Both the position numbers and the translations under genes were made by a program. A stretch of 64,000 nt of DNA from a virus. The stretch's first letter is position 1. The number at the start of each line of letters is the position of its first letter. This document shows, piece after piece, positions 43,774-61,472 of the stretch. A model generated the notes under the pieces. The model saw nothing but the letters and a program-made list of their open reading frames with translations. It was not told the DNA's origin and did no database searches. Location: the IMG/VR virus record IMGVR_UViG_3300028549_001461, positions 32,001-96,000 of that record; one strand, given 5' to 3'.

Positions 43774-44907
43774 ATGGAATTTACAGTAGACCTGCTCGAT
43801 TTACAAAAAGCTTTTAAGTTTATAAGTACCGTAGCAAAACAGAACGATGAAGACGCTGAAGGACATATTCTACTAAATGCAAGATCTTCAGGAGAATTGG
43901 TGTTACTATCTAGTAGTGGTAATCTATCAATAACCCATACAGTACCAAATTGTCAAGTTGTAACAGAGGGTATTTTAGCAGTATCTTTTAAGAAACTAAG
44001 CTCTTTTATTGTTGCTTTTACCTATCTAAAGGAAGGTGTTGGTTCAAGTGTTGTTAAATTTAAAGGTTTAAAGAATGACCTATCTTTGTCTATTGATAGC
44101 TTTACTTTAAATGGTAAAAAATCAACACATAAACTTAAGTTACGTCAAGAAGTAGCACAAAAAGTAGCAATACCTTCACCCTTTAATGTAACGACTTTCG
44201 AAATTAACGCAGCTACTTTACGCTTAGCTATTTCAAAAGTAATATACGCGGTGAATCCTTCCTCTATAAGAGATTTTTTACAAGGAGTTAACATTAATTT
44301 TGATAAAGATTTCATATATTTTGTAGGTACAGACGCGCAAAAATTATCAGAGTATAAAACCCCAAATACCAGTAAATTACAAGAAGGCACTTTTACAGTT
44401 AACTACTCTTTTATTAATGCTTTAAAAAGAGTTATAGACGATGAGAGTTTAGTAAGTTTTAGTATTGATTCTCATAAAATTAAAGCACGTATAAATAATA
44501 CTGTCCTTCATGGAACTATTTTAATAGGTGATACTTACCCAGATTATAGAAAAGCTCTACAAGATTTTAAACATTCATTGGTTATAAATAAAGATGAATT
44601 TTTAGGAAGTTTAGCCCCTTTGTTACCTACCTTAGATAAGGAAGATCATAATAGACTAACTATTAAAATTGAAGATAATAAATTATCGCTAAATAATGAT
44701 TATGCAGATGCTGAATACGGTGGAGAAATTTCTTTTGATGGCACATTTATTATGGATTTAAACGGTATTTATCTATTAAGTACACTAACTGCAATAATGG
44801 ATGATTTAATTTGTTTTAAATTTTCTACTGAAACTAGTCCATTAATTTTTGATTCTTTTAGATTTTCTAATCAAAAGGCACTTATCACACCGGTAAGAAG
44901 ACATTAA
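43774..44907 (+). CDS. dnaN: DNA polymerase III beta subunit (sliding clamp)
   Basis: 377 aa; LQGVNI, FVGTDAQKL (cf. VATDGHRL), GDTYPDYR, MDLNGIYL and C-terminal ALITPVR. Confidence 0.9.
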   Translation: MEFTVDLLDLQKAFKFISTVAKQNDEDAEGHILLNARSSGELVLLSSSGNLSITHTVPNCQVVTEGILAVSFKKLSSFIVAFTYLKEGVGSSVVKFKGLKNDLSLSIDSFTLNGKKSTHKLKLRQEVAQKVAIPSPFNVTTFEINAATLRLAISKVIYAVNPSSIRDFLQGVNINFDKDFIYFVGTDAQKLSEYKTPNTSKLQEGTFTVNYSFINALKRVIDDESLVSFSIDSHKIKARINNTVLHGTILIGDTYPDYRKALQDFKHSLVINKDEFLGSLAPLLPTLDKEDHNRLTIKIEDNKLSLNNDYADAEYGGEISFDGTFIMDLNGIYLLSTLTAIMDDLICFKFSTETSPLIFDSFRFSNQKALITPVRRH

Positions 44908-45482
44908 TGAACACTCTTGATACTTTAATTGGTTGCATAAAAAATCTTGAAAATCCTGGGTTTTTAAAGGACCATTTACTACTAGATGCTGTGGAAGAAG
45001 CATGTGCTTCTTACCTTAAATCTATTGGTTACAAAGTTTCTAAAAATACGGACTATTATAAAATAAATACAATTGATGAACTTGTAGATTTTTTTTATAA
45101 TTGTTTAGATTACTACCATAGTGAGGTTTGTTCTTTAGTATCCAATAGACAGAAAGACAGAGCACTGTTTTCTAAGTTTATATCTAATAGACAAAGTGAG
45201 TTAGGGTGTTCCTTTAAAGATGGTTTACAGGACTGCGCTAATATAGTGAAGGCCTTATTTATTTACGAAGATGAATTAGCTCTTACACTTCCTATTGGCA
45301 CTTGGGTTTTTGGAAGTGAAAAATGTAAATGGCTAACAGATAAAGTAATAAATATACTTAATAATAATTTAGAAAGTGTAAATGAGCAAAAAGTAGTTAA
45401 GATGATAGAAGACAATGAACGTAACTCGGATGATTACATTGGATTCGATTTTGAAAAATTAAGGAGGATGTATGGTGAGTAA
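44907..45482 (+). CDS. Hypothetical protein
   Basis: TAATG-coupled to dnaN; overlaps the recA start. Confidence 0.65.
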   Translation: MNTLDTLIGCIKNLENPGFLKDHLLLDAVEEACASYLKSIGYKVSKNTDYYKINTIDELVDFFYNCLDYYHSEVCSLVSNRQKDRALFSKFISNRQSELGCSFKDGLQDCANIVKALFIYEDELALTLPIGTWVFGSEKCKWLTDKVINILNNNLESVNEQKVVKMIEDNERNSDDYIGFDFEKLRRMYGE

Positions 45483-46551
45483 GAAAGCAGATGATGTTCA
45501 GGAAAAGGAAAGCAAAGTTACTTCTTTTGATATTGCTTTAAAGTCCATAAATAAAAAGTTTGGTGAGGCTGTAAAACCTATGAGTGAAAAACCACTCATA
45601 ATCAATACTATATCTACAAGAAGTTTAGGATTAGACGCAGCTTTAGGAAGAGGTGGTGTAGCTAAAGGTAGATTATACGAAATATATGGTCCACCAAGCG
45701 CAGGAAAAACCACATTAGCTATGTCTATAATTGCTGAAGGTCAGCGTAGAGGTATGAACTGTGTTTTTGTTGACGCAGAACATAGTGCTGATCCTAAACT
45801 ATTTAGTAGTATGGGTGTAGATGTATCAAGACTTCATGTGGTAGAGTTATACACAGGTGAAGATAATTTAGCAGCCGCTGAAACGTTAATGAAAACAAAA
45901 GCAGTTGACCTATTAGTTATTGACTCTGTTACTTCTCTTATACCTAAAGTAGCTGCAGACTCAGAGTTAGAAGACAACAACATTGCTTTACTTGCTCGAC
46001 TAATGAGTAAAACTACTCTTAGGTTTGTTCCTATAGCTGCAGAGACTGACACTTGTGTTATTTTTATTAATCAAACTAGAAACAAGATTGGCGGTTATGG
46101 TAATCCTGAAACTACTACCGGTGGAGATGCATTACCTTTTTATGCTACAGGGAGGATTAGAGTTTCTGGCGTTGGCGCTAAAGCAAATCGTATTGTAGAT
46201 GGTAAAGGTAAAGTTATAGGTCATAGAACAGAATTTGAAACTATAAAAAATAAACTTGCTTGTCCATTTGTTAAATCAGAAACAGATCTTATCTACGGTG
46301 TTGGTTATGATATGGTTGGCGAAGTTGTAAAAATAGCTACAGATTTAGGTGTATTGAGTAAAGCTGGCAGTTGGTACAAGTATAGTGGTGAAAATGTTGG
46401 CCAAGGAGAAATGGGTGTAAGAAAGTTTTTCGAAGATCAGCCTGATGTAGCTTTAGTAATAAAAGAAGAAATTACAAGATTAATGGGTGTAGATGTTTAC
46501 TATAGGGCCCAGGAAGAATATGATAAAGTTAGAAAAGGTCTTGTTAGTTAA
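45472..46551 (+). CDS. recA: Recombinase RecA
   Basis: LDAALGRGG, EIYGPPSAGKTT, FVDAEH, VIDSV, IFINQTR, GNPETTTGG, KAGSWY. Confidence 0.97.
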   Translation: MVSKKADDVQEKESKVTSFDIALKSINKKFGEAVKPMSEKPLIINTISTRSLGLDAALGRGGVAKGRLYEIYGPPSAGKTTLAMSIIAEGQRRGMNCVFVDAEHSADPKLFSSMGVDVSRLHVVELYTGEDNLAAAETLMKTKAVDLLVIDSVTSLIPKVAADSELEDNNIALLARLMSKTTLRFVPIAAETDTCVIFINQTRNKIGGYGNPETTTGGDALPFYATGRIRVSGVGAKANRIVDGKGKVIGHRTEFETIKNKLACPFVKSETDLIYGVGYDMVGEVVKIATDLGVLSKAGSWYKYSGENVGQGEMGVRKFFEDQPDVALVIKEEITRLMGVDVYYRAQEEYDKVRKGLVS

Positions 46552-46896
46552 ATGAGTAAAATAGCCGATAGTGTTTATGAGATATTAAAGGAAGAATTCA
46601 TTTTTACTACTATCGAAAAAGAGTACTATATAAATTATAGAAATACAAGATTACTTTTTGATTTCTATGTTAAATCTTTAGGTATTTTAATTGAGTGTCA
46701 AGGGAGACAGCATACTGAATTTGTTAAGCATTTCCATGGACAAGTAGAAAATTTCTACGCTCAAAAGAGACGAGATAATTTAAAAGTAGAATATTGTGAA
46801 GAAAATAATTTGACTTTAGTATATTTTTATGATACTATAGATGTTATAACAAATAAATTAATTTTAGATAGGATATATGAGGCAATGAATGATTAA
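46552..46896 (+). CDS. Small PD-(D/E)XK (Vsr/DUF559-like) endonuclease
   Basis: LFDFYV...ILIECQGRQH...QKRRDNLK..YC motif. Confidence 0.75.
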   Translation: MSKIADSVYEILKEEFIFTTIEKEYYINYRNTRLLFDFYVKSLGILIECQGRQHTEFVKHFHGQVENFYAQKRRDNLKVEYCEENNLTLVYFYDTIDVITNKLILDRIYEAMND

Positions 46897-47140
46897 TTTG
46901 ATTAATGTTAATAATAAAAAATATTGTAAAGATTGTGCTGATTGGACACCTCTCAAGGACGGTACTAAGACAGGGGATCCAAAGTACTGCGACTTAAGCC
47001 AACTTTGTAAACAGATTGGCATGAAAACTGATTGGTATAATTTTTTTAATTACGAAACTATGGAATACGACTTTGACTATTTTTGCACAGGATTTTATTG
47101 TACAGAAGAAAATAAAAGAGATGATGATGAGGTATCTTAA
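46889..47140 (+). CDS. Small Cys-containing hypothetical protein
   Basis: CKDC plus 4 further Cys; overlaps both neighbours. Confidence 0.6.
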   Translation: MINLINVNNKKYCKDCADWTPLKDGTKTGDPKYCDLSQLCKQIGMKTDWYNFFNYETMEYDFDYFCTGFYCTEENKRDDDEVS

Positions 47141-47595
47141 TGGATTTAAATTTATTATTGTATCAGAAATGCAAACCAGAAAGTTCTTTAGTAGAACAAA
47201 TATTTTCCTACGATGTACGTGATTTAGAACAGACTGATGATACTTTTATTAGCAAAGCTGTTATAGCGTTATCTCAGTATTTAGTTTATTTTAAATCCCA
47301 ACTAAATACTACACAAGCCTCTCTCACCATGAAAGAACGTGTATTGGAAGGTGTTCTATTTGATTTAATAACACCAGATATTATTAAAAAATATAAAACT
47401 AAAAAAGATGCAAGGTTTGGTCTTGTGTATTCTAACGAAACACTAAATAACTTACAATTAGAAATTGATTCTCTGGGTGATGAGCTATTACTACTAGACG
47501 GTGTTGATAAAACTATAATGGAATTAATAGCTGCTTTTAAACGTGAATTAACAAGGAGAGAAAATGAATTATACCAGAGGAAACATTATAAGTAA
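47140..47595 (+). CDS. Hypothetical coiled-coil protein
   Basis: Helical, charged sequence between recA and dnaB; TAATG coupling. Confidence 0.6.
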   Translation: MDLNLLLYQKCKPESSLVEQIFSYDVRDLEQTDDTFISKAVIALSQYLVYFKSQLNTTQASLTMKERVLEGVLFDLITPDIIKKYKTKKDARFGLVYSNETLNNLQLEIDSLGDELLLLDGVDKTIMELIAAFKRELTRRENELYQRKHYK

Positions 47596-49033
47596 CACAG
47601 CATCTTCTAATAGTTATAATTTTTGCGATGCTTCAAATGAACGTAGTATATTAGCTATTATATCGCACAATGAAGATGCTTTTTTTAGTGTTTTATCCAG
47701 AGTAACAGAAAATGATTTTTTAGCTCCAGAATCTAAAGCTTACTTTTCTATACTTTGTTTGTTGAATTCTTCTGGGTACAGTAAATTTACAAAAATGTTG
47801 TTAATAAAAACTTCTGCAGATTTAGGTTATACTGACTTATGCAGTGAATCTTTTGTAGATGCTATTTTAAATGTACCACCGGCTTTTGATAATTTGAATA
47901 ACTTTATAAATAAACTAGTTGATGATAGTACTAAGTATCAATTATTTATGAATTTAACAACACATACAGATGCGGTCTTAACAAACGCTTGTGCTATTGG
48001 TACTAAATCTAGTGATGATTTAATTAATACATTACAATCAGACCTTATATCTTTATCTATACATAGTGAAGCTATATCAGAGCCTAAACATATATCTGAA
48101 GGTTTAACAGAATATTTAGAAAGTATTATGGACGTACATACACCTGTTATAGGTCTATCAACAGGATTTCCAATATTAGATAAAGTTATAGATGGACTTA
48201 TTCCAGGAACACTAATGATTGTAGCTGCAAGAAAAAAGATGGGTAAGTCTACTGTACTAACCAATATAGCTGCCAATGTCGCTGTAAACGATGGTTTACC
48301 CACCTTATATGTCGATACCGAGATGACATTTAAAGAGTGGCGTGATAGGGTTTTGGGCATTATAAGTGGTGTTCAAGAACGTACTATAAAACACGGTGGT
48401 TTTAAGAATGATAAGGAGGTTTTAAAAAGAATATTTGACGCCGCTAAGTATTTAGAGAAAAGTAAACTTTTTCATCATTACTTACCTGGTTATAATTTAG
48501 AGAAAATAACCTCTTTATATAAAAAGTACAAGTTTAAAGAGGATATTAAACTAGGTGTTTTTGATTATATTAAAGAACCTGAATCTTCAAGTATAGAAGC
48601 TGGTAGAAAGGAATACCAGATTTTAGGTGACGTAACCACAAGACTTAAAGATCTTTCAGGTCAGCTTAATATACCTTTTATAGCTGCTGTACAAGTAAAT
48701 AGATCTGGCGATGTTGCCGACTCCGATAGAGTAGCAAGGTATGGAGATATTGTTGCCTTTTGGGGTTTACGAGATTTAAAAAGAGCCGAAGAAGAAGCGA
48801 TAGATTTAGATTTAGCTGGTCATTACAGCCTATGCATAAGAGATACTCGTAGAGGAGGTACGACAGGTGAGTGGGGTATAGGCTTTAAATTTAAGAAAAC
48901 CAAACTTAAAATACTTGAAGTAAGCCAAGAAAACCAGATTGAGACTTTTGATTATCTTTCAGATATGAAGATAGATTTAGGAAGTAGTTTAAATAATAAT
49001 GAGGATTTATACGCAGATGGCTCACTCCTTTAA
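47564..49033 (+). CDS. dnaB: Replicative DNA helicase, DnaB family
   Basis: AGGAG site; N-terminal NERSILA...LFxxPE-like region; GLSTGFPILD, Walker A AARKKMGKST, DTEM, VFDY, LNIPFIAAVQVNR. Confidence 0.92.
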   Translation: MNYTRGNIISNTASSNSYNFCDASNERSILAIISHNEDAFFSVLSRVTENDFLAPESKAYFSILCLLNSSGYSKFTKMLLIKTSADLGYTDLCSESFVDAILNVPPAFDNLNNFINKLVDDSTKYQLFMNLTTHTDAVLTNACAIGTKSSDDLINTLQSDLISLSIHSEAISEPKHISEGLTEYLESIMDVHTPVIGLSTGFPILDKVIDGLIPGTLMIVAARKKMGKSTVLTNIAANVAVNDGLPTLYVDTEMTFKEWRDRVLGIISGVQERTIKHGGFKNDKEVLKRIFDAAKYLEKSKLFHHYLPGYNLEKITSLYKKYKFKEDIKLGVFDYIKEPESSSIEAGRKEYQILGDVTTRLKDLSGQLNIPFIAAVQVNRSGDVADSDRVARYGDIVAFWGLRDLKRAEEEAIDLDLAGHYSLCIRDTRRGGTTGEWGIGFKFKKTKLKILEVSQENQIETFDYLSDMKIDLGSSLNNNEDLYADGSLL

Positions 49034-50045
49034 TAGTACTGATATACAAATACTCAAAGAAAGTGTAGACTTGGTTATGTTGGTCAGTTCTCTAGGTTTC
49101 AATATAACACATGAAAATACCAGAGAAATAAGAGCAGCATGTGTTATTCATGGCGGGGACAATAAGAGCGCCTTTAGGCTGAATAAGGATACACGTACTT
49201 GGCAGTGTTTTACTAATAAGTGTCATATAGAACATGGTTATGACTTAATAGGTCTTATAAAAGCTGTACTAAAGATAGATTTTATAGCAGCAGTTAATTA
49301 CTTGAGGGACCTTGTAGGTGATATATCATTTAATGCCAAGTTTGCGTCTGACCGTCTTTTTTCTAGAGATAAGGATGCTTTTATACGTAGTTATTCTAAA
49401 CCCAAGATGCCAGAGTATGTTTCTGAGGGTCATTTAATATCCTATAGACCTTTAAGATCTACTCTGTTTAATAAAAAAGGTAATTTTTCTAACGCTACTT
49501 TAAATTACTTTGAAGTTTCTGGTGGATTTACTGATAATTTTGGTATACTGCGTGATATAATTCCTATAAGGGACGCTGAAGGTAGTTTAAAAGCCTACTC
49601 TTTACGTGATACTAGGTTGAATCCTCCTGATGAACATCATAAATATATAATAACTTCTGGGTTTTTAAAAGACACTGTGTTATATAACTTGCATAATGCT
49701 AAAATATATGGTAATATACTTCCATTAATAGTTGTAGAGGGTTTTAAATCTGTTTGGCGACTTTATGACTACGGTATTTATAATGTAGTTTGTGTTATGG
49801 GGTCTTTTTTAAGTCCTGGTCAACTACAACTTCTAAAAACATACGCTTTAAAAGGTGTTTTACTAATGTTTGATGCAGATAAAGCAGGTAGAGGGGGCGC
49901 AAAACTTGCTTATGATAGTTTGGATGAAGAGCATATACCTGTAGTTGATCTTGATATCAGCGACAAAGTTATGAAAACAACAGATGGCCCCGCTGAACTA
50001 TCATCAGAGGATATATATAGTTATGTATACCAGTATATTAGGTGA
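49017..50045 (+). CDS. dnaG: DNA primase (CHC2 zinc finger + TOPRIM)
   Basis: CVIH...WQCFTNKC; IVVEGF; MFDADKAG. Start at ATG 49017 or 48999. Confidence 0.88.
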   Translation: MAHSFNSTDIQILKESVDLVMLVSSLGFNITHENTREIRAACVIHGGDNKSAFRLNKDTRTWQCFTNKCHIEHGYDLIGLIKAVLKIDFIAAVNYLRDLVGDISFNAKFASDRLFSRDKDAFIRSYSKPKMPEYVSEGHLISYRPLRSTLFNKKGNFSNATLNYFEVSGGFTDNFGILRDIIPIRDAEGSLKAYSLRDTRLNPPDEHHKYIITSGFLKDTVLYNLHNAKIYGNILPLIVVEGFKSVWRLYDYGIYNVVCVMGSFLSPGQLQLLKTYALKGVLLMFDADKAGRGGAKLAYDSLDEEHIPVVDLDISDKVMKTTDGPAELSSEDIYSYVYQYIR

Positions 50046-50343
50046 AAATATAGTTAAACTCATAGGTAAGATAAGCTACAAAGAAGTTAATACCTATGGG
50101 GATAGAATAAATTTTAGATGTAAATTAGCTGTACCTATTGAAGAAGCTTTTCAATATATAAAAATATCTGCTTGGGGTAAAATGGCAGAGGCTTTAGGTG
50201 AATTACCTAATGGTACTTATATAAAGTTGTTTGGTCATATAGAAGAATCTTCTTTTACTACAAATTGTAAGTATTGTAAAGGTCCTTCTACAACGTATTG
50301 GACTTCTGTTAGTGTTGATAATTTTGTTGTTGTTTCTTATTAA
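50023..50343 (+). CDS. Single-stranded DNA-binding protein (OB fold); start uncertain
   Basis: NIVKLIGKI...YIKISAWGKMAE.L..L..G..IKLFGHI is the SSB pattern. Confidence 0.75.
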   Translation: MYTSILGENIVKLIGKISYKEVNTYGDRINFRCKLAVPIEEAFQYIKISAWGKMAEALGELPNGTYIKLFGHIEESSFTTNCKYCKGPSTTYWTSVSVDNFVVVSY

Positions 50344-50374
50344 TTTTTAAAACATAAATGAGTGAGGTAAAAGA

Positions 50375-50722
50375 ATGAGTGAAACTCCTGAAGAAAAAGA
50401 TGTAGTTTATGCAATGCCCACATTGGCAATGCTTCCCGCTAATAATTTTAAAATACATATTGACGGTAATAAACATATAATAGAATTGCCATGTTCTGGT
50501 TCTTATAAAGAAATAGATCCAGAATTCTTTTCTGATGATGATGGTACTTTTATCTTATTCGAAAATGATACATTGTTTGTGTCTTCTATAACAAAAGTAC
50601 TTTTTGCTGTTTCTAAATACCCACGTTTAGCAGACAATCAACTTTTTTGTCCTATAACTATCACTAAAAAAGATGATAAGCTTGTAATATGTGGTCAAGT
50701 GGTAACTATGATAGGAGAATAA
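50375..50722 (+). CDS. Hypothetical protein
   Basis: GAGG site; fills the gap in the operon. Confidence 0.6.
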   Translation: MSETPEEKDVVYAMPTLAMLPANNFKIHIDGNKHIIELPCSGSYKEIDPEFFSDDDGTFILFENDTLFVSSITKVLFAVSKYPRLADNQLFCPITITKKDDKLVICGQVVTMIGE

Positions 50723-50725
50723 AAA

Positions 50726-51508
50726 ATGAGCAATTACTATGACGTTCTAGGTGTAAGTAGAACAGCTACTGAAGAAGAAATTAAAAAGGCTTTTAGAAAA
50801 TTAGCTTTAGAACATCATCCTGATAAGAATAATGGTGATGATAGTAAGTTTAAAGAAATAAATGAAGCCTACCAAGTTTTATCTGATAGTAAAAAAAGAA
50901 GAGACTATGATAATCCTGGCTTTTCTTCAGGTTCTTTTGGTAGATCTCCCTTCGACGTACACGACTTTTTTAGAGAACATTTTAATATGAACATGGGTGG
51001 GGCCGGTTCCAGAAATTTCCCACAAAAAGGACAAGACGTTAGTTTAGTTTTACCAGTATCTTTATATGAAGCCGTAGTAGGTATTGATAAACCTATAAAA
51101 TTTAATTTAGAAGACACTTGTATTAAGTGTGATGGTACAGGATTTTTAGATAGGATTACTTGTAAAGTTTGTAATGGTGCTGGGGTAAGAGCTCAAACAG
51201 TTCAACACCATAATATGCACATGATGTCACACGTTCCGTGTGATGCATGTGCCGGTAAAGGTTTTACATCTAATTCAAAATGCACTGTTTGTACATTAGG
51301 TAAAGTGGTAACAAATAAAGATTTTATAGCTACTGTACCTAAAGGTATCACCCATGGTACTACATTACAATTTCCTGGTAAGGGTGGTGTGGGTAAATTC
51401 GGAGGTCCAAATGGTGGTGTGTTTATTAGGGTGCATATTAATTTACCTAATGCGGATGCGTTAACTCCTGAACAATTAAATGTTTTAAGAGATATAAGTG
51501 CTAAATAG
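50726..51508 (+). CDS. dnaJ: DnaJ-family co-chaperone (J domain, CxxCxGxG zinc finger, shortened C-terminal domain)
   Basis: YYDVLGV...HHPDKN...FKEINEAY; [31 protein letters not shown]. Confidence 0.92.
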
Positions 51509-52025
51509 TATACTAAGTTTAGATATATCAGCATCATCTACAGGGTGGTGCTACACAGACACGGGTGCTTCTTTTATTTCTGGTACTATAAAAAGTAATC
51601 CTAAGGATTCAAGAGGTACCCGATTAGTTAACTTTGGATCGGAGCTGGAGAATTTGTTATTGAAATTGACTCCTACTTACATAGTACAAGAGGATACTTT
51701 TTCAGGTAAAAATGTTAGAACTTTAAAAATTTTATCAGAATTCTCAGGCGTGTCTAAATATATTTGCATGAAAACCCTTAATATAGACCCCTTTATTGTG
51801 GCTAATACTTCTGTTAAATCTTACTTTAAGAGTGCTACTAAAGATATTCTATTTGATTTTATCTGTGAGCTGTTCGATTTAGTTGACACATCTTTTGCTT
51901 TAAACAATGATGCTGTTGACGCTCAAGCACAATTATTGTATTATGCTGACGAGATTTTAAATTTGTATAAATATAGATATGATAAAGATTATGGATATCT
52001 TTATTTGGAGGATACAAGTGAGTAA
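51498..52025 (+). CDS. RuvC-like Holliday junction resolvase
   Basis: [18 protein letters not shown] and NDAVDA acidic triad; GTG start. Confidence 0.8.
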
Positions 52026-53196
52026 ACAAATTAAATTAAGTGCTACAAGAGTAAATACTTTTCTTCAATGTAAGCAACGTTATTGGTTTTCTTATGAAGA
52101 GCGCGTAGAAAAATTATCTAACCCTGTTTTCAAATTAGGTTTGGCTTGCCATGACACGTTAGAGAAAGCAGGTAGAGTTTGGAAAAAGAATGATCTTCAA
52201 AAGTTCTCTCAAGAACAGATTGAAGAATTATTAGTTTACTACGACGAGGCTTCTGTAAATCATGGTATAGAAGATTACGCAGACCATTTGGTAGGTAAAG
52301 ATATTGTAAAAAGCAAATTATCTAAATTTAAAATAGGCGAACGTATTGTTGGTATAGAGGATAAATTTGGTTTCGAAGGTGCCCAGGTTATAACTACTGA
52401 AAAAGGTGTTGAGCTTATAGGCGCAATAGATAAAACAGTAGAAATTGACGCTAATACAATTGCTATTGTTGATTATAAAACATCTAAAACTATACCAGAT
52501 GCTGATAAATTGCGTACTGATATACAACTTTCCATGTATGATTTGGTTGCTAGAAAGTTATATCCACAGTATAGCAAAGTTATATTGTGCCTGGACATGT
52601 TAAGAACTGGTGACTTGGTCTATACGTATAGAACAGATAGTGAGCGTGTGGATTTTGAAGACTATTTATTTGAAGTACATACTCAAATGTCTAATCTTAC
52701 TAAAGAGGACGCCAAACCATCAATTAACTTTTTGTGCGCTTGGTGTGACCATACTAATGTTTGCTCAAAATACCAAGAATTGTGTCTAAAAAAGGACTAC
52801 GCTTTTTTGAATGTTAATTCTTTATCCGATGATGCTTTAGTTGAAGAGTGGGATAATGTTAGGACAGTGCAAAAGATATTAGAACTACGTGAAAGAGAAA
52901 TAGCTGATGTAATTATAAATAAATTAAAGATACAAGAACAACCTGTAATCTCTGGTGACAAGGAACTAGTTTTAAGACAAAAAGCTACTACATCTTTTAA
53001 TGCCGTCAAGTTAAGTAGTTATATACCTAATGAGGATTTTGTGTCTCTAGTTTCTGTTTCTTCATCTAAATTAAAAAAATATCTAGAAAAAAATCCTAGT
53101 ATATTGCCTATTATGCCTGAAATTAGTGAGACAAATTTTTCAAGTTCTTATTTGGCTGCCAAAAAGAATAAACCTATAAAACAAAAAAAGGATTAA
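52018..53196 (+). CDS. RecB/Cas4-like PD-(D/E)XK exonuclease with Fe-S cysteines
   Basis: LSAT...LQC, G...H..LE, GAID, IVDYKT, QLSMY, CAWC...C; GTG start at 52018 after GGAGG. Confidence 0.85.
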   Translation: MSKQIKLSATRVNTFLQCKQRYWFSYEERVEKLSNPVFKLGLACHDTLEKAGRVWKKNDLQKFSQEQIEELLVYYDEASVNHGIEDYADHLVGKDIVKSKLSKFKIGERIVGIEDKFGFEGAQVITTEKGVELIGAIDKTVEIDANTIAIVDYKTSKTIPDADKLRTDIQLSMYDLVARKLYPQYSKVILCLDMLRTGDLVYTYRTDSERVDFEDYLFEVHTQMSNLTKEDAKPSINFLCAWCDHTNVCSKYQELCLKKDYAFLNVNSLSDDALVEEWDNVRTVQKILELREREIADVIINKLKIQEQPVISGDKELVLRQKATTSFNAVKLSSYIPNEDFVSLVSVSSSKLKKYLEKNPSILPIMPEISETNFSSSYLAAKKNKPIKQKKD

Positions 53197-53198
53197 TT

Positions 53199-54482
53199 AT
53201 GAAGAAAAAAATATTATGCTACTGTGATAGCCCTACATGTGCTACTGGTTTTGGTACTGTTAGTCGTAATGTATTGGAGCACTTGTATAGAAGTGGTGAT
53301 TATGAAATAGATATCTTTGGTATAAATTATCATGGTTTACCTCATAATTTTCCTTACAGAATTTGGCCAGCTATGGATTATCAGGCTGGTGATCCCTACG
53401 GTAGAAGAAAATTCTGTTACTTTGCTTTGGAACATGACTTTGATATTCTATGGGTATTACAAGATACTTTCATAGTAGATTTTCTTCCTGAACTTATACA
53501 TCATTTGAAAGCAAATAGAACAAAACCTTTTAGAACAATTATGTATTACCCCATAGATAGTACTTTGAAAAAAGACTGGTATAATAATATAAATGTTGTT
53601 GACAGATTAGTAGCTTATACTGATTTTGGTAGACAAGCTTTTTTAAAACAGGCAGCAGAGAATGGGCCCTCAGATGCTAAAGACAGAACAATAGATGTTA
53701 TATACCATGGTGTAGATACCAATATATTTAAAGTTTTACCAGAGACTGCTGTAACTGACTTTAAAGCAAACTATTTTTCTAAAGCTAATAAAGATAAATT
53801 TGTTTTTACAAACATTAATAGGAACCAACAAAGAAAGGACATACCAAGAACTTTACAAGCTTTTAAAGCATTTAATAAGCTTGTCCCAGAATCTATATTA
53901 TATCTGCACATGTGCCCAATAGATCAGGGTTGGGATATACCACAACTACTACCAGAAATGGGGTTAACTTTAGGTAAAGAAGTTGTTTTACCGGAGAAAA
54001 TGGAACCAAATCAAGGGTACCCTTTAGATGTTGTTAACTATCTTTACAATATTAGTGACTGTGTTATAAGCACAACTTTAGGTGAGGGTTTTGGTATTAG
54101 TTGGTTGGAAGCTATGGCTTGTAAAGTACCCGTTATAATGCCTGACAATACAGCTATGTCAGAATTGATATCTGAAGATCGCGGATATCTTACAAAAAGT
54201 GGTAGTAATCTAAGTCTATGGACAGTAATACCTAATGATAATAATCTACCCAGACCGTTAGTAGATGTTGATGACATGTTAAATCAGATGTTGCATGTTT
54301 ATAATAATCGTAGTGAAGTTACGTTAAAAGTGGAAGCTGCTTACAAATGGGTAAATTCAGAAATGCGGTGGGGAGCTAAAATAGCTAAACAGTGGCTGCG
54401 TGTTTTTGAGGAAGAGTGTAAATTGATAGGTACTAAGTCATCTGTGAGTGGTACTAAAGTTATATCAGCAGAACAAATTTAA
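53199..54482 (+). CDS. Glycosyltransferase, GT-B fold (GT4-like)
   Basis: TGFGTVSRN, IYHGVD, NRNQQRKDIP, GEGFGISWLEAMACKVPVI. Confidence 0.92.
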   Translation: MKKKILCYCDSPTCATGFGTVSRNVLEHLYRSGDYEIDIFGINYHGLPHNFPYRIWPAMDYQAGDPYGRRKFCYFALEHDFDILWVLQDTFIVDFLPELIHHLKANRTKPFRTIMYYPIDSTLKKDWYNNINVVDRLVAYTDFGRQAFLKQAAENGPSDAKDRTIDVIYHGVDTNIFKVLPETAVTDFKANYFSKANKDKFVFTNINRNQQRKDIPRTLQAFKAFNKLVPESILYLHMCPIDQGWDIPQLLPEMGLTLGKEVVLPEKMEPNQGYPLDVVNYLYNISDCVISTTLGEGFGISWLEAMACKVPVIMPDNTAMSELISEDRGYLTKSGSNLSLWTVIPNDNNLPRPLVDVDDMLNQMLHVYNNRSEVTLKVEAAYKWVNSEMRWGAKIAKQWLRVFEEECKLIGTKSSVSGTKVISAEQI

Positions 54483-54490
54483 AATAACTA

Positions 54491-54519
54491 TTGCAATAAA
54501 AAGTTTAATTGTGTATACT
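54491..54519 (+). promoter_or_regulatory. sigma70-type promoter upstream of thyX
   Basis: TTGCAA (54491-54496), 17-nt spacer, TATACT (54514-54519); AGGAGG site downstream. Confidence 0.75.
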
Positions 54520-54541
54520 TTTATGTACACAATTAAACTTT
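54500..54541. repeat. Perfect 16-bp inverted repeat with a 10-nt spacer
   Basis: aaagtttaattgtgta (54500-54515) / tacacaattaaacttt (54526-54541). Confidence 0.95.
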
Positions 54542-54563
54542 ATTAATTTTAGGAGGATTAAGT

Positions 54564-55319
54564 ATGAAAGTAAAGTTATTATCCGTAACACCTAATGCCA
54601 AAGAATTAATTTTTGCTGCCGGGAGACAATGTTACACTGAAGGTTGGGTAGGAGACTCCTGGGAAATACAAGATAACAATATCGTTATTAAAGATCTAAA
54701 CGATGGTCATACTTGTTCTGATAAAGAGATAGAAAGATTAGTTAATTATTTAAAAGAGTCTGGACATACCAGTGTCTTAGAACATGCTAAATTTACATTT
54801 GCTATCGATGGTGTTTCCAGAGCACTAACTCACCAACTTGTTAGACATAGACTTGCTTCATACTCTCAACAAAGTCAAAGATATGTAGATTTAAATGTAC
54901 AATTTTCTATTGATAATTTTGTTGTACCTCCTAAGATTCTCAAAAATGAAAAAGCTTATTTAGAATATGTTGATCTTCTTTCTAAAATACAAGATGTTTA
55001 TAATGCCTTAATTAATTTAGATATTCCTGCCGAAGATGCTAGATATGTTTTGCCTAATGCTGCTAAAACAAGAATTGTTGTGACTATGAATTGTGTGGCT
55101 CTTCTACATTTTTTTGGTTTAAGGTCTTGTACTTTAGCTCAATGGGAAATTAGAAATTTATCTAACAAACTATTGGCTATATGTAAGGAAAATTTACCTT
55201 GTGTTTTTAATAATGCAGGAAGTAGATGTGAAAATTTAGGTTATTGCCCAGAAAGTTCAAAACGATCTTGTGGTAAATATCCTACTAAAGATCAAGTTCT
55301 AGCAGAGGGACTCCATTGA
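54564..55319 (+). CDS. thyX: FAD-dependent thymidylate synthase
   Basis: GHTSVLEH, SRALTHQLVRHRLASYSQQSQRY, EDARYVLP, AQWEIR. Confidence 0.97.
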   Translation: MKVKLLSVTPNAKELIFAAGRQCYTEGWVGDSWEIQDNNIVIKDLNDGHTCSDKEIERLVNYLKESGHTSVLEHAKFTFAIDGVSRALTHQLVRHRLASYSQQSQRYVDLNVQFSIDNFVVPPKILKNEKAYLEYVDLLSKIQDVYNALINLDIPAEDARYVLPNAAKTRIVVTMNCVALLHFFGLRSCTLAQWEIRNLSNKLLAICKENLPCVFNNAGSRCENLGYCPESSKRSCGKYPTKDQVLAEGLH

Positions 55320-55699
55320 AACAATATGTAATAGGTATCATTTTTAATAACACTGTTGAAAAAGTACTGCTTATAAGGAAAAATAGACCTAAATGGCAGT
55401 CCGGTAGATTAAATGGTGTAGGTGGAAAGGTAGAAGAAGTTGAATCTTCTTATGAAGCTATGATAAGAGAATGTCAAGAAGAGTGTGGTCTTTTACTACA
55501 TAATTGGTTACTAGTAGACACCTATACGGATGGGGTAAATTTTACAATTGACTATTTTATAATTAAAACACCATCCATAGAAAAAGCCGAAACATTAACA
55601 GATGAATTAATAGAAATTTGGTCTATCAATAATTTGCAATTTACTGATGTAGTTGAGCCTACTCTGGATTTTATACATAGAGTTAAATATAAAATATAG
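55316..55699 (+). CDS. NUDIX hydrolase
   Basis: Complete Nudix box G-x5-E-x7-RE-x2-EE-x-G-L (GGKVEEVESSYEAMIRECQEECGL); TTG start overlapping the thyX stop. Confidence 0.9.
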   Translation: MKQYVIGIIFNNTVEKVLLIRKNRPKWQSGRLNGVGGKVEEVESSYEAMIRECQEECGLLLHNWLLVDTYTDGVNFTIDYFIIKTPSIEKAETLTDELIEIWSINNLQFTDVVEPTLDFIHRVKYKI

Positions 55700-55712
55700 T
55701 GGAGTTTATAGC

Positions 55713-56837
55713 ATGAAGATAACAGGGATTAAATATATAGGCCCGGTTCTAGACAATTCGGGATACGCAAAAGCTAGTAGAAATGATATATTAGCTTTGT
55801 TAACACAGGATGTGCCTTTAACATTACAACCAGTATCTTTTGAAAAATCTAATCCAGATTTAGGAGAAACTGGTGAAATACTTAAAGAACTAATAAACAA
55901 GGATATACCATATAATGTAGTTATGATAAGAACTACACCTGAATTTTGGGAAAAGTTTAAAGAACCAGGAAAGCTGATGATTAATCATACTATATGGGAA
56001 ACTACAAAACTTCATCCTGATTGGGTGCCTTATATAAATGATAATGCAGATAAACTTTTAGTAGCCACAGATTGGAATGCAGAAGTTTTTAGAGATAGTG
56101 GTATTACAATACCTATTGGTGTTGTACCTCACTGTTTAGATATAGACATCGATAAAAAAAATATTACCCCCTATAAGGTCGCAGATATAGAAAGTGACAC
56201 ATTTACATTTGGCTTTGTAGGACAGTGGGTAGAGAGAAAAGACCCTCTGTCTCTCCTTAAATCTTATTTTTATGCTTTTAGAAACAAAGAGAATGTAGCT
56301 TTAATTTTAAAAACATACAGGTCCAATTACTCGGAGCAAGAAAAACAAATCATTAGAACTACAATAAAACATTTAAAAAATGGTATGGTTTTTGATAATT
56401 TTCCAAAAATATATTTTGTTTCAGATATGTTAACTGATGCTGAGATAGATGGTTTTTACAAAGGAATTGATTGTTATGTGTCTTTGGATAGAGGTGAGGG
56501 TTGGGGATTAGGCCCGTTTCAGGCAGGAGCCGCTGGTAAACCTGTTATTGCCACAGGTTTTGGAGGAGTAAACGCTTTTTTGAAACCTGATAATAGTTAT
56601 TTAGTAAATTATACTTTAGCACCTACCCACGGCATGCCTTATTCACCGTGGTACAAATCAGAGCAACTTTGGGCCCAAGCAGATATAAAACATGGTGCTG
56701 ATCTTATGCAAGAAGTTTTTAACGATAGAGCCGGAGCAAAAGAAAAGGGACTTAAATTAAAAGAATATATAAAAGATACTTTTTCTTATACAAAAGTTGG
56801 CGCCATGATGGTTAAAGAAATTGAGGATATGCTATGA
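55713..56837 (+). CDS. Glycosyltransferase, GT-B fold (GT4-like)
   Basis: SGYAKASR, TIWETT, VGQWVERKD, RGEGWGLGPFQAGAAGKPVIAT; ATG 55713 after GGAG. Confidence 0.92.
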   Translation: MKITGIKYIGPVLDNSGYAKASRNDILALLTQDVPLTLQPVSFEKSNPDLGETGEILKELINKDIPYNVVMIRTTPEFWEKFKEPGKLMINHTIWETTKLHPDWVPYINDNADKLLVATDWNAEVFRDSGITIPIGVVPHCLDIDIDKKNITPYKVADIESDTFTFGFVGQWVERKDPLSLLKSYFYAFRNKENVALILKTYRSNYSEQEKQIIRTTIKHLKNGMVFDNFPKIYFVSDMLTDAEIDGFYKGIDCYVSLDRGEGWGLGPFQAGAAGKPVIATGFGGVNAFLKPDNSYLVNYTLAPTHGMPYSPWYKSEQLWAQADIKHGADLMQEVFNDRAGAKEKGLKLKEYIKDTFSYTKVGAMMVKEIEDML

Positions 56838-57313
56838 GAAGAACATTGAATGTAGGCTGCGGTGAAAGGGTGTATAAAATTTACCCAGAAGGATATGTGT
56901 GTGTAAATTTTGATGAACGTTCTTTGGATGGTGTTGATGTAGTAGGAGATGTCAAGGATTTATCTCAATTTTGCGATGGATATTTTTCTTATATACTCGC
57001 TTCTGACATTTTAGAGCACTTTCCTATAGACAAAAGCTTGGGTATTTTACGTGAGTGGCAGCGTGTTTTAGAAAAAGGAGGACGTATTGAATTTAGAGTA
57101 CCTAATTTAAAAACTATCTGTGCACAGTACGATGGAAAAAATGCCAAATTCATTAGTTGGCTACTCTACGGAGCTCAAAACTACTCAGGAAATTTCCATT
57201 ATGTTTGTTTTGACAGAATGCTATTAGAAGAATATTGTACTTTAGTAGGTTTGAGACCTATTGAATACAGAGAAGAGGGCAACAACTTTATATTGCTAGC
57301 CATTAAAGATTGA
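56834..57313 (+). CDS. Class I SAM-dependent methyltransferase
   Basis: LNVGCG, ASDILEHF, EWQRVLEKGG. Confidence 0.88.
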   Translation: MRRTLNVGCGERVYKIYPEGYVCVNFDERSLDGVDVVGDVKDLSQFCDGYFSYILASDILEHFPIDKSLGILREWQRVLEKGGRIEFRVPNLKTICAQYDGKNAKFISWLLYGAQNYSGNFHYVCFDRMLLEEYCTLVGLRPIEYREEGNNFILLAIKD

Positions 57314-57458
57314 TACCTATTTAAATTGCTTATTTTACCTTCTGTGAGTACTTACTAATTGTTGGTAGCTTTCCATATCTATACATATAAAAAGTTACTG
57401 TAGAGCATTCTGAGACTTTTTACGCGTATTAAATATCTAATAGAGTAGCGGAGGATTA

Positions 57459-58025
57459 ATGTCTGATTTTAAAAAAAAGTTCGTGCATAATTTACTAGAA
57501 AATGTTATAATTTCTGAAATGCTAAAAGAATTCGGTGAAGATTTATATGATAAATGCATTATGGACGTGAGCTTTGGTTGTAATTTGCATGATTTTTATC
57601 TTAATCATCTTCAGGCATCTTTAGTTACAAGCACCTCTTTACCTGATTCGGAGGTTGATACTTTGTTAGACTACCGTTTGGACGTACTTAATCTTGACCT
57701 ACATGATCGTGTAGGTGCTTTTAGTAGCCAATACGATATTGTTGTCGCCTATGATACTTTTAATGTGTACCTATCTGATATAAACTGGCAAGCTACTCTT
57801 GAGAATTTACTTTTTTATATAAAACCAGGGGGTCTTTGTATAGTAAACGGTACTTTTCCTACTATTACTTTAGATGATTCTATTCGTTCCAGATCTAAAG
57901 GTGTTTGGCGAGCTTTAATTAAAAAATGTAATTGTTCAATAATTACTTTACTTGATAATAGCTCTAACTACTTTTTTGTAAACGACAAAATAATGGTAAT
58001 TCAAAAATGCAAGAAATTAAATTAA
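57459..58025 (+). CDS. Methyltransferase-like protein (degenerate motif I)
   Basis: IMDVSFGC, YDIVVAYD and LLFYIKPGG; GGAGG site. Confidence 0.6.
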   Translation: MSDFKKKFVHNLLENVIISEMLKEFGEDLYDKCIMDVSFGCNLHDFYLNHLQASLVTSTSLPDSEVDTLLDYRLDVLNLDLHDRVGAFSSQYDIVVAYDTFNVYLSDINWQATLENLLFYIKPGGLCIVNGTFPTITLDDSIRSRSKGVWRALIKKCNCSIITLLDNSSNYFFVNDKIMVIQKCKKLN

Positions 58026-58453
58026 TCGTATCTGAGATAGATGGTGTTATAACTACAGGTGTAGATCCTGTAGATGAGCTTGGTAATGTTTTATTTAAAA
58101 ACTTTTTTATCCCTGATTTTGAAGCTATTAATAAATTAAAGGCTATATGTCCTTTTGTATTTCTATCTTCCGATAATTCAGTTAGTTACAATCTAACTAG
58201 GAGAAAAAATATCCCTTTTTATTGGACAAATAAATCAGATAAGTTAAGTATTTTACAACAAATACTAATGCGCTATAATGTTACATCTGACGAGACTCTT
58301 TATGTGGGTAGTAAATTATCTGACATACCATGTATGCAGATGGTTCCTGCTTCATTTTGTACTAACACTACTCTCGGTTTTCCTACATTTTCTTGCAAAG
58401 CTGGTGAAGGTATTTTAACTGAATTGTATATTAAATATTTTAAAAAGAATTAA
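58007..58453 (+). CDS. KdsC/YrbI-like HAD-superfamily phosphatase with altered catalytic residues
   Basis: IKLIVSEIDGVIT, K.F...D..AI, DKL and LYVGSKLSDIPCM follow the KdsC layout. Confidence 0.75.
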   Translation: MQEIKLIVSEIDGVITTGVDPVDELGNVLFKNFFIPDFEAINKLKAICPFVFLSSDNSVSYNLTRRKNIPFYWTNKSDKLSILQQILMRYNVTSDETLYVGSKLSDIPCMQMVPASFCTNTTLGFPTFSCKAGEGILTELYIKYFKKN

Positions 58454-58467
58454 TAGGGGTAGATTGT

Positions 58468-59532
58468 ATGCTTATAAGAAGAGAAACTAACAATGGTGCT
58501 AATAGTTTTTTAACTGTATATCGACCTTGTACAGTAGATGAATTTTTAGGAAGTGCAGCTGTTAAAAATCTAGTGAGTAGTTATTTGGCAAAAAATACTT
58601 TACCCCATGTACTTTTAATAACTGGGGATGCCGGTTTAGGCAAAACTACTTTAGCCAGGGTGATAGCCTTAAAATTAAATTGTGAAAATCCAGATGGAGA
58701 GAAGCCATGTTTAAAATGTAGTTCGTGTGTATCCATACTGAATGCTAATAGTATAGACGTTCATGAAATTAATGTAGGTAGTAGTAGTGGAAAGGACGCA
58801 GTGGATGGTCTTATTCATAACTTATCGTCTGCACCATTTAGTTCAAAGTATAAGATCCTTATATTTGACGAGGCTCATAGATTATCTTCAGCAGCACAAG
58901 CACTTTTGTTGAAACCATTAGAAGATTGTTATTCACATGTGTTTCTTATTTTTTGTACTAACGAGCCTGAAAAATTAGTAAATAAACTTTCGGATGACCA
59001 ACCTTTTTTAGATAGATGTAAAATATTGCATTTAACTTCTTTATCGGATGAAGAAGTATTTCAAATGCTAGAAAACGTATCTCAGTTTGAAGGGGTTAAT
59101 TATAATACAGATGTATTAAAGTACATATGCGATCTTTCTTTTGGTGTACCTAGAAAAGCTTTAAATTTCTTAGACTCTGTTATAACCGAAGGATCTTGGA
59201 ACATTGAAAATATTAAACCTCTTTTAAGTGGTATTATTCTTGACGAGGATGATGTGGGGGTATTAGAATTAAGTAAAGCACTTATAAAACGTGATTTTGG
59301 TAGTGCTTGTATTTTATTTGAACAACTTAGTAAGAAATTTCCTGTTGAAAGTATACGCGTGGCTGTATGTGGATTTTTTGTAGGTTGTTTAAAAAGAAGT
59401 AGTTTAAAGTCCGGTAAGGGTATATCTAATGCTTTAACACAGTTGACAACTCCGATATACTTAACAGGTAAACCAGCTGAACATCTTTTTTACAATATAA
59501 TGTTTAAAGTAACATCTTTAATTGAGGGTTAA
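58468..59532 (+). CDS. dnaX: Clamp loader AAA+ subunit, DNA polymerase III gamma/tau-like
   Basis: YRPCT, GDAGLGKTTLAR, LNCE...PCLKCSSC, ILIFDEAH.LS..AQ..LLK.LE, DRC. Confidence 0.9.
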   Translation: MLIRRETNNGANSFLTVYRPCTVDEFLGSAAVKNLVSSYLAKNTLPHVLLITGDAGLGKTTLARVIALKLNCENPDGEKPCLKCSSCVSILNANSIDVHEINVGSSSGKDAVDGLIHNLSSAPFSSKYKILIFDEAHRLSSAAQALLLKPLEDCYSHVFLIFCTNEPEKLVNKLSDDQPFLDRCKILHLTSLSDEEVFQMLENVSQFEGVNYNTDVLKYICDLSFGVPRKALNFLDSVITEGSWNIENIKPLLSGIILDEDDVGVLELSKALIKRDFGSACILFEQLSKKFPVESIRVAVCGFFVGCLKRSSLKSGKGISNALTQLTTPIYLTGKPAEHLFYNIMFKVTSLIEG

Positions 59533-59534
59533 TA

Positions 59535-61472
59535 ATGGCTAATTTAGTGTCTTTCGTTGATTTACCTGAGTTGCCAATTCCTACATACGAATATGTTAAG
59601 GATGAATTTAGAGCAAGAGAAATTCTTTCTATACTTGATAATTACCCCGTACTTGAGGTCGATACTGAAGGTACCTCTTTAGACCCATTTGGTTGTAGAA
59701 CCACATTAATACAGATAGGCATACCTAATATGGCTTATGTTTTTGATGTGCGTAGTGACTTACCTGATATAACAATACACGGAAGCTTATTTAAAGGTAT
59801 ACTCACAGATAAAAGAATATTGAAACTTTTACAGAACGCCAATTACGATATGAAGGTACTTAAAGTTCAGTATGGTTTTTATATAGAGAATGTCTACGAT
59901 ACTATGTTAACTGAAATATTACTTTATCTTGGTATACAGGAATCAGGTTTTAGTTTAGCTAAGTTAGTAGAAAAATATTTAGGTATGGTTATGAATAAAG
60001 AGCCGAGGGGAACTTTTGAAGCTTATGACCAAGAGTTTTCAGACAAACAGATAGCTTATGCAGCTAATGACGTTTGTGTTCTTGATTTTATAAGAAACAT
60101 GCAGAAGCCACGTCTTGAAAAGTACAATCTACAGGAAGTACATAAGTTAGAAATGTCCTTTATAAAACCTCTTGTAGAGATGGAACTGAATGGTGTTAAG
60201 TTAGATGTTGTTAAATGGCGTATTATGATGTCGGAGTTTGCAAAAGAGCTAGAGGTATTTAAATCCTTCATAGAAGATAGTTTACAAGTTACACAAGATC
60301 AACTATCCTTATTTGATGTACCTACTGTTAATATAGCAAGTCCAGTACAATTAAAAACAGCTTTAAATAGATTGGGTATAAAGGTTGAATCTACGTCTAA
60401 TGACGTACTAAAGAAATACTCACATCATAAAGTTATTGAAAATTTATTATCATATAGAAAAAATTCTAAATTGGTTAATACTTATGGTGAAGCTTTAATA
60501 GATAGAATACATCCAAAAACAGGTCGTTTACATACTGAGTTTAAGCAGATGGTTTCAACTGGTAGACTATCTTCCAATAACCCAAATTTACAGAATATTC
60601 CAGGGAAACAAAAGTTTAGATCCTGTTTTATAGCTGACTATAAAATGTGTTTAATAACAGTGGATCAGAATTCTGCTGAGTTAGTAATAATGGGGGCAAT
60701 GTCGGGAGAACCTAACTTCATAGATACTTATGAAAAGGGACTAGATTTACACACAGTGAATGCTTCCCGTATTTATGGTGTGCCGTATGATAAAGTTACT
60801 CCAGAACAAAGAAAGGCTTCAAAAGCAATATCGTTCGGTTTAGCTTATGGTATATCAGCAGTTGGTTTAGGCAAGCGTTTAGGTATTCCTAAAGAAGCTG
60901 CACAAAAACTTATTGATGCCTATTTTAAAGCAAATAATGTATTGTGTTCTTGGTTGAATAAAGCAGCTAAAGATGCTGTAAGAACACATAGTAGTGTTAC
61001 TATTACTGGTAGACATCGTTTTTATAATATACCATCGATGAGTGACCCAGCTAGAAAAGCCATCATTGGTTCAGTAGAACGGGCTTCTAAGAATCACAAA
61101 ATTCAAGGTTCAGACAGTGACACAATTAAATTAGCTATGATTTTATGTGTCGATAGATTGGAAGAACTGAATGTTGGCGCAAGATTACTTTTATCTGTGC
61201 ACGATGAAATTGTTGTTGAGTCTCCTATAGAGCATGCAGAAGAAGTAGCTAAGGTCGTAGTTAGTGCTGTGGATGATGCCTTTAACTACTACTTTCCTAT
61301 AATGCCTATGAAAACATCTCCAGTAATTGGACCATGTTGGATTAAAGGTGAGTGCGAGGCGAAAAATACAGAAACAGGTAAGAAGTGTGAACATAATGTT
61401 ATGCAATTTATTGAAGATACACACTATGGTTCTAAGCTAGTTTGTGCTAAATGTGGTGCTCCACAAGAATAA
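59535..61472 (+). CDS. polA: Family A DNA polymerase with 3'-5' exonuclease and no 5'-3' nuclease domain
   Basis: ExoI VDTEG, ExoII NANYD, ExoIII YAAND; TGRLSSNNPNLQNIP; motif B RKASKAISFGLAYG; motif C VHDEIV. Confidence 0.95.
   Translation: MANLVSFVDLPELPIPTYEYVKDEFRAREILSILDNYPVLEVDTEGTSLDPFGCRTTLIQIGIPNMAYVFDVRSDLPDITIHGSLFKGILTDKRILKLLQNANYDMKVLKVQYGFYIENVYDTMLTEILLYLGIQESGFSLAKLVEKYLGMVMNKEPRGTFEAYDQEFSDKQIAYAANDVCVLDFIRNMQKPRLEKYNLQEVHKLEMSFIKPLVEMELNGVKLDVVKWRIMMSEFAKELEVFKSFIEDSLQVTQDQLSLFDVPTVNIASPVQLKTALNRLGIKVESTSNDVLKKYSHHKVIENLLSYRKNSKLVNTYGEALIDRIHPKTGRLHTEFKQMVSTGRLSSNNPNLQNIPGKQKFRSCFIADYKMCLITVDQNSAELVIMGAMSGEPNFIDTYEKGLDLHTVNASRIYGVPYDKVTPEQRKASKAISFGLAYGISAVGLGKRLGIPKEAAQKLIDAYFKANNVLCSWLNKAAKDAVRTHSSVTITGRHRFYNIPSMSDPARKAIIGSVERASKNHKIQGSDSDTIKLAMILCVDRLEELNVGARLLLSVHDEIVVESPIEHAEEVAKVVVSAVDDAFNYYFPIMPMKTSPVIGPCWIKGECEAKNTETGKKCEHNVMQFIEDTHYGSKLVCAKCGAPQE

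Follow-up and report, generated by a model that had tools for sequence, protein, structure and literature searches.

A putative clamp-docking motif in the thumb loop of a family A DNA polymerase from an uncultivated giant phage

Introduction

To our knowledge, T7, which uses thioredoxin, is the only phage in which the processivity of a Pol I-type polymerase has been solved; for enzymes of the T5 and SPO1 types, inserts built into the polymerase have been put forward as its basis. Replicases composed of a family A DNA polymerase (PolA) and homologues of the Pol III beta and gamma subunits were predicted in phages Ma-LMM01 and RSL1 by Kazlauskas & Venclovas 2011 (PMC3201878), who proposed that beta is the processivity factor of PolA, left the composition of the loader open and mapped no clamp site on PolA. 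Here we analyse a replication block of this composition in a window of 64,000 nucleotides, bases 32001-96000 of the 161,221-bp IMG/VR record IMGVR_UViG_3300028549_001461. The block spans positions 43774-61472 of the window, lies on the plus strand throughout and encodes a dnaN-like beta sliding clamp, a dnaX-like clamp-loader ATPase and a PolA that carries the clamp-binding-type pentapeptide QLSLF in its thumb. The phage probably replicates with this PolA/clamp pairing.

Like Ma-LMM01 and RSL1, the phage is large (>150 kb) and combines a family A polymerase with a beta-clamp homologue and one gamma-like loader subunit. Its clade is separate from theirs and uncultivated. A thumb motif shared with Ma-LMM01 and RSL1 was rejected, since a scan of their PolAs found neither QxxLF nor the NxxSxxQ anchor that follows the motif here. 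The cultured Streptococcus phage Dp-1 (NC_015274) is annotated with DnaN (gp10), a clamp loader (gp17-19), a polymerase (gp71), DnaB and DnaG, and its polymerase belongs to family A. Dp-1 has three loader genes where the present block has one, and the clamp-binding-like peptide of its polymerase is found at the extreme N-terminus (MAQKGLFGA) rather than in the thumb loop. An internal QxxLF in an unstructured loop has also been modelled into the beta-clamp pocket for actinobacterial PolA2 (APEX; NAR 2026, PMC12926913). PolA2 is a bacterial enzyme of low fidelity and has the motif in its vestigial exonuclease domain, whereas the phage replicase described here is a proofreading enzyme with the motif in its thumb. 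Our searches of the open-access literature turned up no earlier account of a clamp motif in the thumb loop of a phage PolA. The combination of PolA, beta and gamma, which a preliminary description of this window had pointed out, is already known from Ma-LMM01, RSL1 and the annotation of Dp-1; the new part would be the mapped thumb docking site, which we predict from sequence.

A clamp-binding-type motif in PolA

The polA gene (59535-61472, plus strand) encodes 645 residues, assigned to a 3'-5' exonuclease and a polymerase domain by Pfam (PF01612, E 1.5e-26, and DNA_pol_A PF00476, E 6.6e-86); the Pfam scan found no 5'-nuclease domain in it. Its matches to Taq and Klenow polymerases have E values of 1e-64 to 1e-68. 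The polymerase residues D377, E382, H556, D557 and E558 do not vary among 65 homologues (30-83% identity), nor do the catalytic residues of the exonuclease, in which D43, E45, D105, Y175 and D179 are conserved.

Translation places QLSLF at residues 256-260 (60300-60314, plus strand, codons caa cta tcc tta ttt), and the thumb sequence VNIASPVQL begins five residues after it. The thumb-loop peptide predicted to bind the clamp reads TQDQLSLFDVPT. QLSLF matches the QL[SD]LF consensus exactly, and this was the only occurrence in the 51,760 residues of non-overlapping open reading frames (ORFs) of the record, where 0.11 would be expected; when the PolA sequence was shuffled, such a match arose in 0.08% of cases. 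Relaxed clamp motifs were at or below chance in the proteome of the record (for Q..[LM]F, 4 observed and 7.2 expected), so further clamp clients sought on that basis were rejected.

The motif is conserved. QLSLF is identical in five relatives (79-83% identity), and 14 relatives with identities down to 45% all keep Q256 and F260. In the motif columns of the 65 homologues, 41 have Q, 55 have L or M and 44 have F; S, T, D or N predominates at the third position, and the residue after the F is G, E or D. The NxxSxxQ anchor is recognisable in 209 homologues, and 126 of these carry Q-x-x-[LMI]-[FWL] within 40 residues upstream of it, compared with 5.6% of random windows. In these anchored sequences, the third position is again mostly T, S, D or N and the spacing between motif and anchor ranges from 4 to 14 residues. 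Such a combination of a short conserved pattern with a loop that differs in length is what linear docking motifs usually look like. Phmmer paired the QLSLF segment with SRDQLERVLFD of Taq, a pairing that we rejected because multiple alignments pair VNIASPVQL with FNLNSRDQL.

PolA has three further peculiarities. A zinc-ribbon-like Cys4 tail (residues 606-640; 61350-61454, plus strand), with beta strands at 622-637 in an AlphaFold2 (AF2) model, lies past the normal C-terminus of the polymerase domain. Its four cysteines are kept in close relatives, and the tail is also present in a homologue of 49% identity. Motif A (residues 376-384, ~60660-60686) reads VDQNSAELV instead of the usual DYSQIELR and keeps the catalytic D and E; more distant clade members have DMSSAELR. 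Finally, many of the closest homologues (P0004-P0012, P0028, P0037 and others) are 770-1,500 residues long and match in two to three stretches, with breaks near residues 437 and 526. These split matches fit intein insertions in the polymerase domain, of which the copy in the window has none.

The thumb loop and its position

The AF2 model of PolA has a mean predicted local distance difference test (pLDDT) value of 94.4. In it, the motif lies in an accessory insertion, the H-H1 loop (residues 254-269; 60294-60341, plus strand), which is coil, joins a long helix (225-253) to a short one (270-279) and has pLDDT values of 82-85 compared with 93-98 in its flanks. Bacterial Pol I and the PolAs of Bacillus and Listeria phages lack this loop, and their helix runs straight to the anchor. 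One subfamily of phage PolAs has another long insert there, of the IPVKTKK type and without the motif. Judged from these comparisons, the loop is dispensable for the PolA fold, because bacterial Pol I and several phage PolAs do without it.

Alignment with gp5 from the T7 genome record shows that the T7 insert (~residues 262-333) occupies this loop too and is immediately followed by FNPSS. Both T7 gp5 and the PolA described here are family A replicases with an insertion between helix H and the FNxxS helix, which in T7 is a processivity handle and here a putative one. The T7 insert comprises ~70 residues and binds host thioredoxin, whereas here a loop of 16 residues is predicted to present a five-residue peptide to a ring clamp that depends on a loader. 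The two share no sequence similarity, so the likeness is one of position, and the loop is not a thioredoxin-binding domain of the T7 type.

The DnaN clamp and a model of the complex

The first gene of the block, dnaN (43774-44907, plus strand), encodes a beta clamp of 377 residues (isoelectric point 6.3) with all three Pfam beta-clamp domains. A profile built from 37 homologues matches solved beta clamps over residues 1-375 (E 7e-65). The residues of the peptide-binding pocket are among the most conserved columns of this phage clamp family: conservation is complete for L191, P256, Y258 and N330 and at least 90% for T186 and P373. Relatives among cultured phages were limited to five weak matches of 22-25% identity in 50,697 phage records.

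We modelled one DnaN protomer together with residues 200-345 of PolA, both with alignments. The pair scored 0.67 and the best of three controls 0.00; of 80 solved complexes, 58 reach the mark set for this score, as do 2 of 110 mismatched pairs. The runs share at least 93% of contacts, with a pLDDT of at least 68 for the partner and ~90 for the DnaN chain. The modelled contacts join PolA residues 254-260 and 262-266 to DnaN residues 186-191, 256-261, 330, 354-356 and 372-377. We take these DnaN residues to correspond to T172-L177, P242-V247, N320 and the C-terminal M362-L366 of E. coli beta, i.e. to the canonical pocket. In the model, the QLSLF segment thus sits in the canonical DnaN pocket between domains II and III, which supports binding without proving it.

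The preliminary description had proposed that QLSLF, read just before VNIASPVQL and at the site of the T7 thioredoxin insert, tethers PolA to the phage clamp. The translation and the gp5 alignment bear out both positions, the motif is conserved in relatives, and the predicted complex, within the limits of a thumb fragment and a single protomer, agrees with the proposed contact.

The clamp loader and the search for another polymerase

The dnaX-like gene (58468-59532, plus strand; PF13177, E 1.7e-27) ends 2 nucleotides before polA and encodes a gamma-type clamp-loader ATPase of 354 residues. It has a Walker A motif (GDAGLGKT), a Walker B motif (IFDEAH), an arginine finger reading DRC instead of SRC and a Cys4 zinc module (C-x11-C-x2-C-x2-C). 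The C-terminal domains of tau bind Pol III alpha in E. coli; the length of the phage protein corresponds to domains I-III only and leaves no room for them. Neither delta nor delta' was found in the 161-kb record, where the only PF13177 match is the dnaX-like gene itself and no separate PF06144 match occurs. PF13177 matches significantly once in each of the five near-complete relatives; in one of them (G025) there is a second match, at E 0.09. In another relative (G023:C1:124565-124975), the dnaX-like match falls within an open frame of 665 residues, compared with the usual 353-383, which could represent a fusion or an extension.

A conserved gene of 191 codons (44907-45482, plus strand; ORF191) overlaps the dnaN stop codon by 1 nucleotide. 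Its homologue lies between dnaN and recA in all 12 relatives checked, including a distant 298-kb phage. The protein had no match in Pfam, PHROG or the atlas, and its model, all-alpha with a mean pLDDT of 75, found no match in the PDB with Foldseek at E<=0.001. We regard it as a candidate accessory factor. Several relatives of ORF191 have a QxxLF-like N-terminal patch (LEQRDLF, DQTNLF, VQNDFL), which reads LENPGFL in the window copy.

Pfam searches for DNA_pol3_alpha and PolB found neither in the whole record, nor in five relatives that bear the same module, two of them 100% and three 86-89% complete. All five encode a single clamp and have a single significant DnaX-like gene. These results bear on the possibility that clamp and loader serve a C-family polymerase. 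This would be host Pol III or a phage DnaE encoded in the ~39% of the genome that the record lacks, and PolA would be confined to gap filling. Beta clamps do normally serve Pol III, and the record is estimated to be 61% complete (GC content 33%). Against this stand the complete and near-complete relatives, which have the module and neither polymerase, and a DnaX homologue that ends before the tau domains, and we consider such an arrangement highly unlikely. It had been stated beforehand that dnaN heads the module, that dnaX is the gene next to polA and that the window lacks Pol III alpha; all three statements are accurate, and the last one extends to the full record and the five relatives. The claim that the phage has its own clamp and clamp loader stands for the full beta clamp and the gamma-like DnaX and does not stand for delta and delta', which were not detectable.

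Distribution of motif and clamp across phages

We compared 48 viral records with related PolAs, 30 of which form a giant-phage clade (PolA at least 45% identical) with near-complete records of 228-269 kb. All 30 have dnaX-like genes; in the window and in four relatives for which coordinates were compared, polA follows the dnaX-like gene directly. The dnaN gene occurs in 23 of the 30 and is missing only from fragments that are at most 54% complete. Two complete phages of ~296 kb with more distant PolAs also have both dnaN and a dnaX-like gene. All 25 dnaN-bearing records have the thumb motif, three of them as a variant with K for Q.

The motif is not confined to these phages. The crAss-like phage cr111_1, which is without dnaN and dnaX, has QGNLF in the thumb loop of its PolA, and ~60% of the related phage PolAs have the motif. 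Its presence in complete phages without a clamp, including three of ~88 kb considered below, indicates that it is family-wide rather than special to clamp-encoding phages. The preliminary description had asked for a test of whether thumb motif and dnaN occur together; they do in one direction, from dnaN to motif, and not in the other. We infer that the clamp-less phages may use the host clamp, which is the simplest reading.

The same distribution raises the question of whether the motif binds the host beta clamp in the present phage as well, alone or besides the phage clamp, with phage DnaN and DnaX devoted chiefly to other tasks such as recombination-dependent replication, repair or late transcription. 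The motif is indeed kept in the complete ~88-kb phages and in the crAss-like phage in the absence of dnaN and dnaX, and the order in which dnaN is always trailed by ORF191 and then recA would suit such a role. We nevertheless think this unlikely, as every dnaN-bearing record has the motif, the pocket of the phage clamp is conserved and receives the motif in the model, and no other phage polymerase was detected as a user of the clamp.

On a longer time scale, the thumb-loop QxxLF may be old and widespread in a large clade of phage family A polymerases, to which those of the crAss-like and the clamp-less ~88-kb phages belong. Many phages would then achieve processivity of their PolA by hijacking the host beta clamp at the site where T7 binds thioredoxin, and the giant phages would have internalised the clamp together with a minimal one-gene loader and possibly ORF191 as an accessory subunit. 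We offer this scenario tentatively and rate it at somewhat less than even odds.

A proposed mechanism and its significance

We consider a clamp tether through the thumb loop of PolA the most likely mechanism, with a probability of about 0.7. The phage gamma-like DnaX ATPase would form the core of a loader that places the DnaN ring at primer ends. The ring would encircle the product duplex behind PolA, and its pocket between domains II and III would capture the thumb peptide. Tethered to DNA in this way, PolA might be processive enough for a genome of ~260 kb.

Several observations weigh against this mechanism. The record is incomplete, and only a single loader subunit is recognisable, although divergent or host subunits may exist. 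The complete ~88-kb phages (G036, G038 and G041) have VQLDMF, FQTDMF or VQANMF in the loop, and dnaN and dnaX went undetected in them; a phage clamp is thus no precondition for the motif, which could be conserved for some other role. The loop pLDDT is above the low values typical of fully disordered motifs. As for the complex, clamp-peptide structures are abundant among solved complexes, so that the pass of the model may reflect recall, and what was modelled is a thumb fragment on one DnaN protomer instead of the full enzyme on DNA.

Some of these points would also fit an explanation in which Q-x-x-L-F has a structural role in the loop or binds another partner, such as the helicase-primase or a single-stranded DNA-binding protein (SSB), and resembles a clamp motif by coincidence. 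The thumb insert of T7 also contacts gp4. In some homologues "LFG" is kept where Q is not (DLFG, DLWG), the loop is predicted with fair confidence, and the motif occurs without a phage clamp. A role in the core of the enzyme is opposed by the variable spacing to the flanking helices and by the absence of the loop from many active PolAs. Moreover, the residue preferences at all five positions fit the clamp-binding consensus, and the segment docks in the canonical pocket while the controls all scored 0.00. This explanation appears improbable to us.

If the clamp tether is correct, the predicted docking site of a ring clamp is narrowed to one short, mutable peptide in the thumb, and the proposal of 2011 that beta serves PolA becomes a direct experiment. 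The occurrence of the motif in clamp-less phages, including crAss-like ones, points to capture of the host clamp as a possibly common and previously undescribed dependency, which, if true, would matter for host range and for inhibitors that target the clamp. A loader with one recognisable gene also prompts the question of what the minimal bacterial-type clamp loader is.

Other genes of the replication block

The block begins with the dnaN-like clamp, ORF191, RecA, an HNH-like ORF, DnaB and a DnaG-like Toprim primase. Small ORFs of no assigned role, DnaJ, a RuvC-like resolvase and a PD-(D/E)XK nuclease follow, and the block ends with two GT4 glycosyltransferases, ThyX, a NUDIX protein, methyltransferases, the DnaX-like ATPase and PolA. 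The RecA-type recombinase (45472-46551, plus strand) matches Pfam RecA at E 2.5e-73, and the DnaB-type replicative helicase (47564-49033, plus strand) matches DnaB_C at E 1.1e-30. The DnaG-like primase (48999-50045, plus strand) was assigned from Toprim_4 (E 3.1e-10) and a weak DNAG_N match.

A small protein with a putative OB fold (49984-50343, plus strand), encoded directly after the primase gene, is a lead for an SSB. Its language-model features match, at 0.97, viral clusters of the atlas in which 17-22% of members have a Pfam SSB domain; the Pfam SSB search gave no match, this ORF included, and the protein is without an acidic C-terminal tail. Thus, of the self-contained replisome outlined in the preliminary description, DnaB and a DnaG-like primase were found, while of the loader only the gamma-like subunit is detectable and the SSB is a weak lead with a negative Pfam result.

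Among the replication genes, 50726-51508 encodes a full DnaJ homologue with J domain, zinc-finger region and C-terminal domain. Between the nuclease genes and dnaX (53199-58025), the module contains the two GT4 glycosyltransferases, ThyX, the NUDIX protein and two methyltransferase-like genes, a group that could form a DNA or nucleotide modification cassette. Outside the block, positions 2-2866 of the window are the tail of an ORF of 7,659 codons that starts upstream of the window (G000:11887). A short adenylosuccinate-synthetase-family gene of 355 codons, assigned by Pfam, lies ~3.7 kb past the end of the window (G000:C1:99726-100790).

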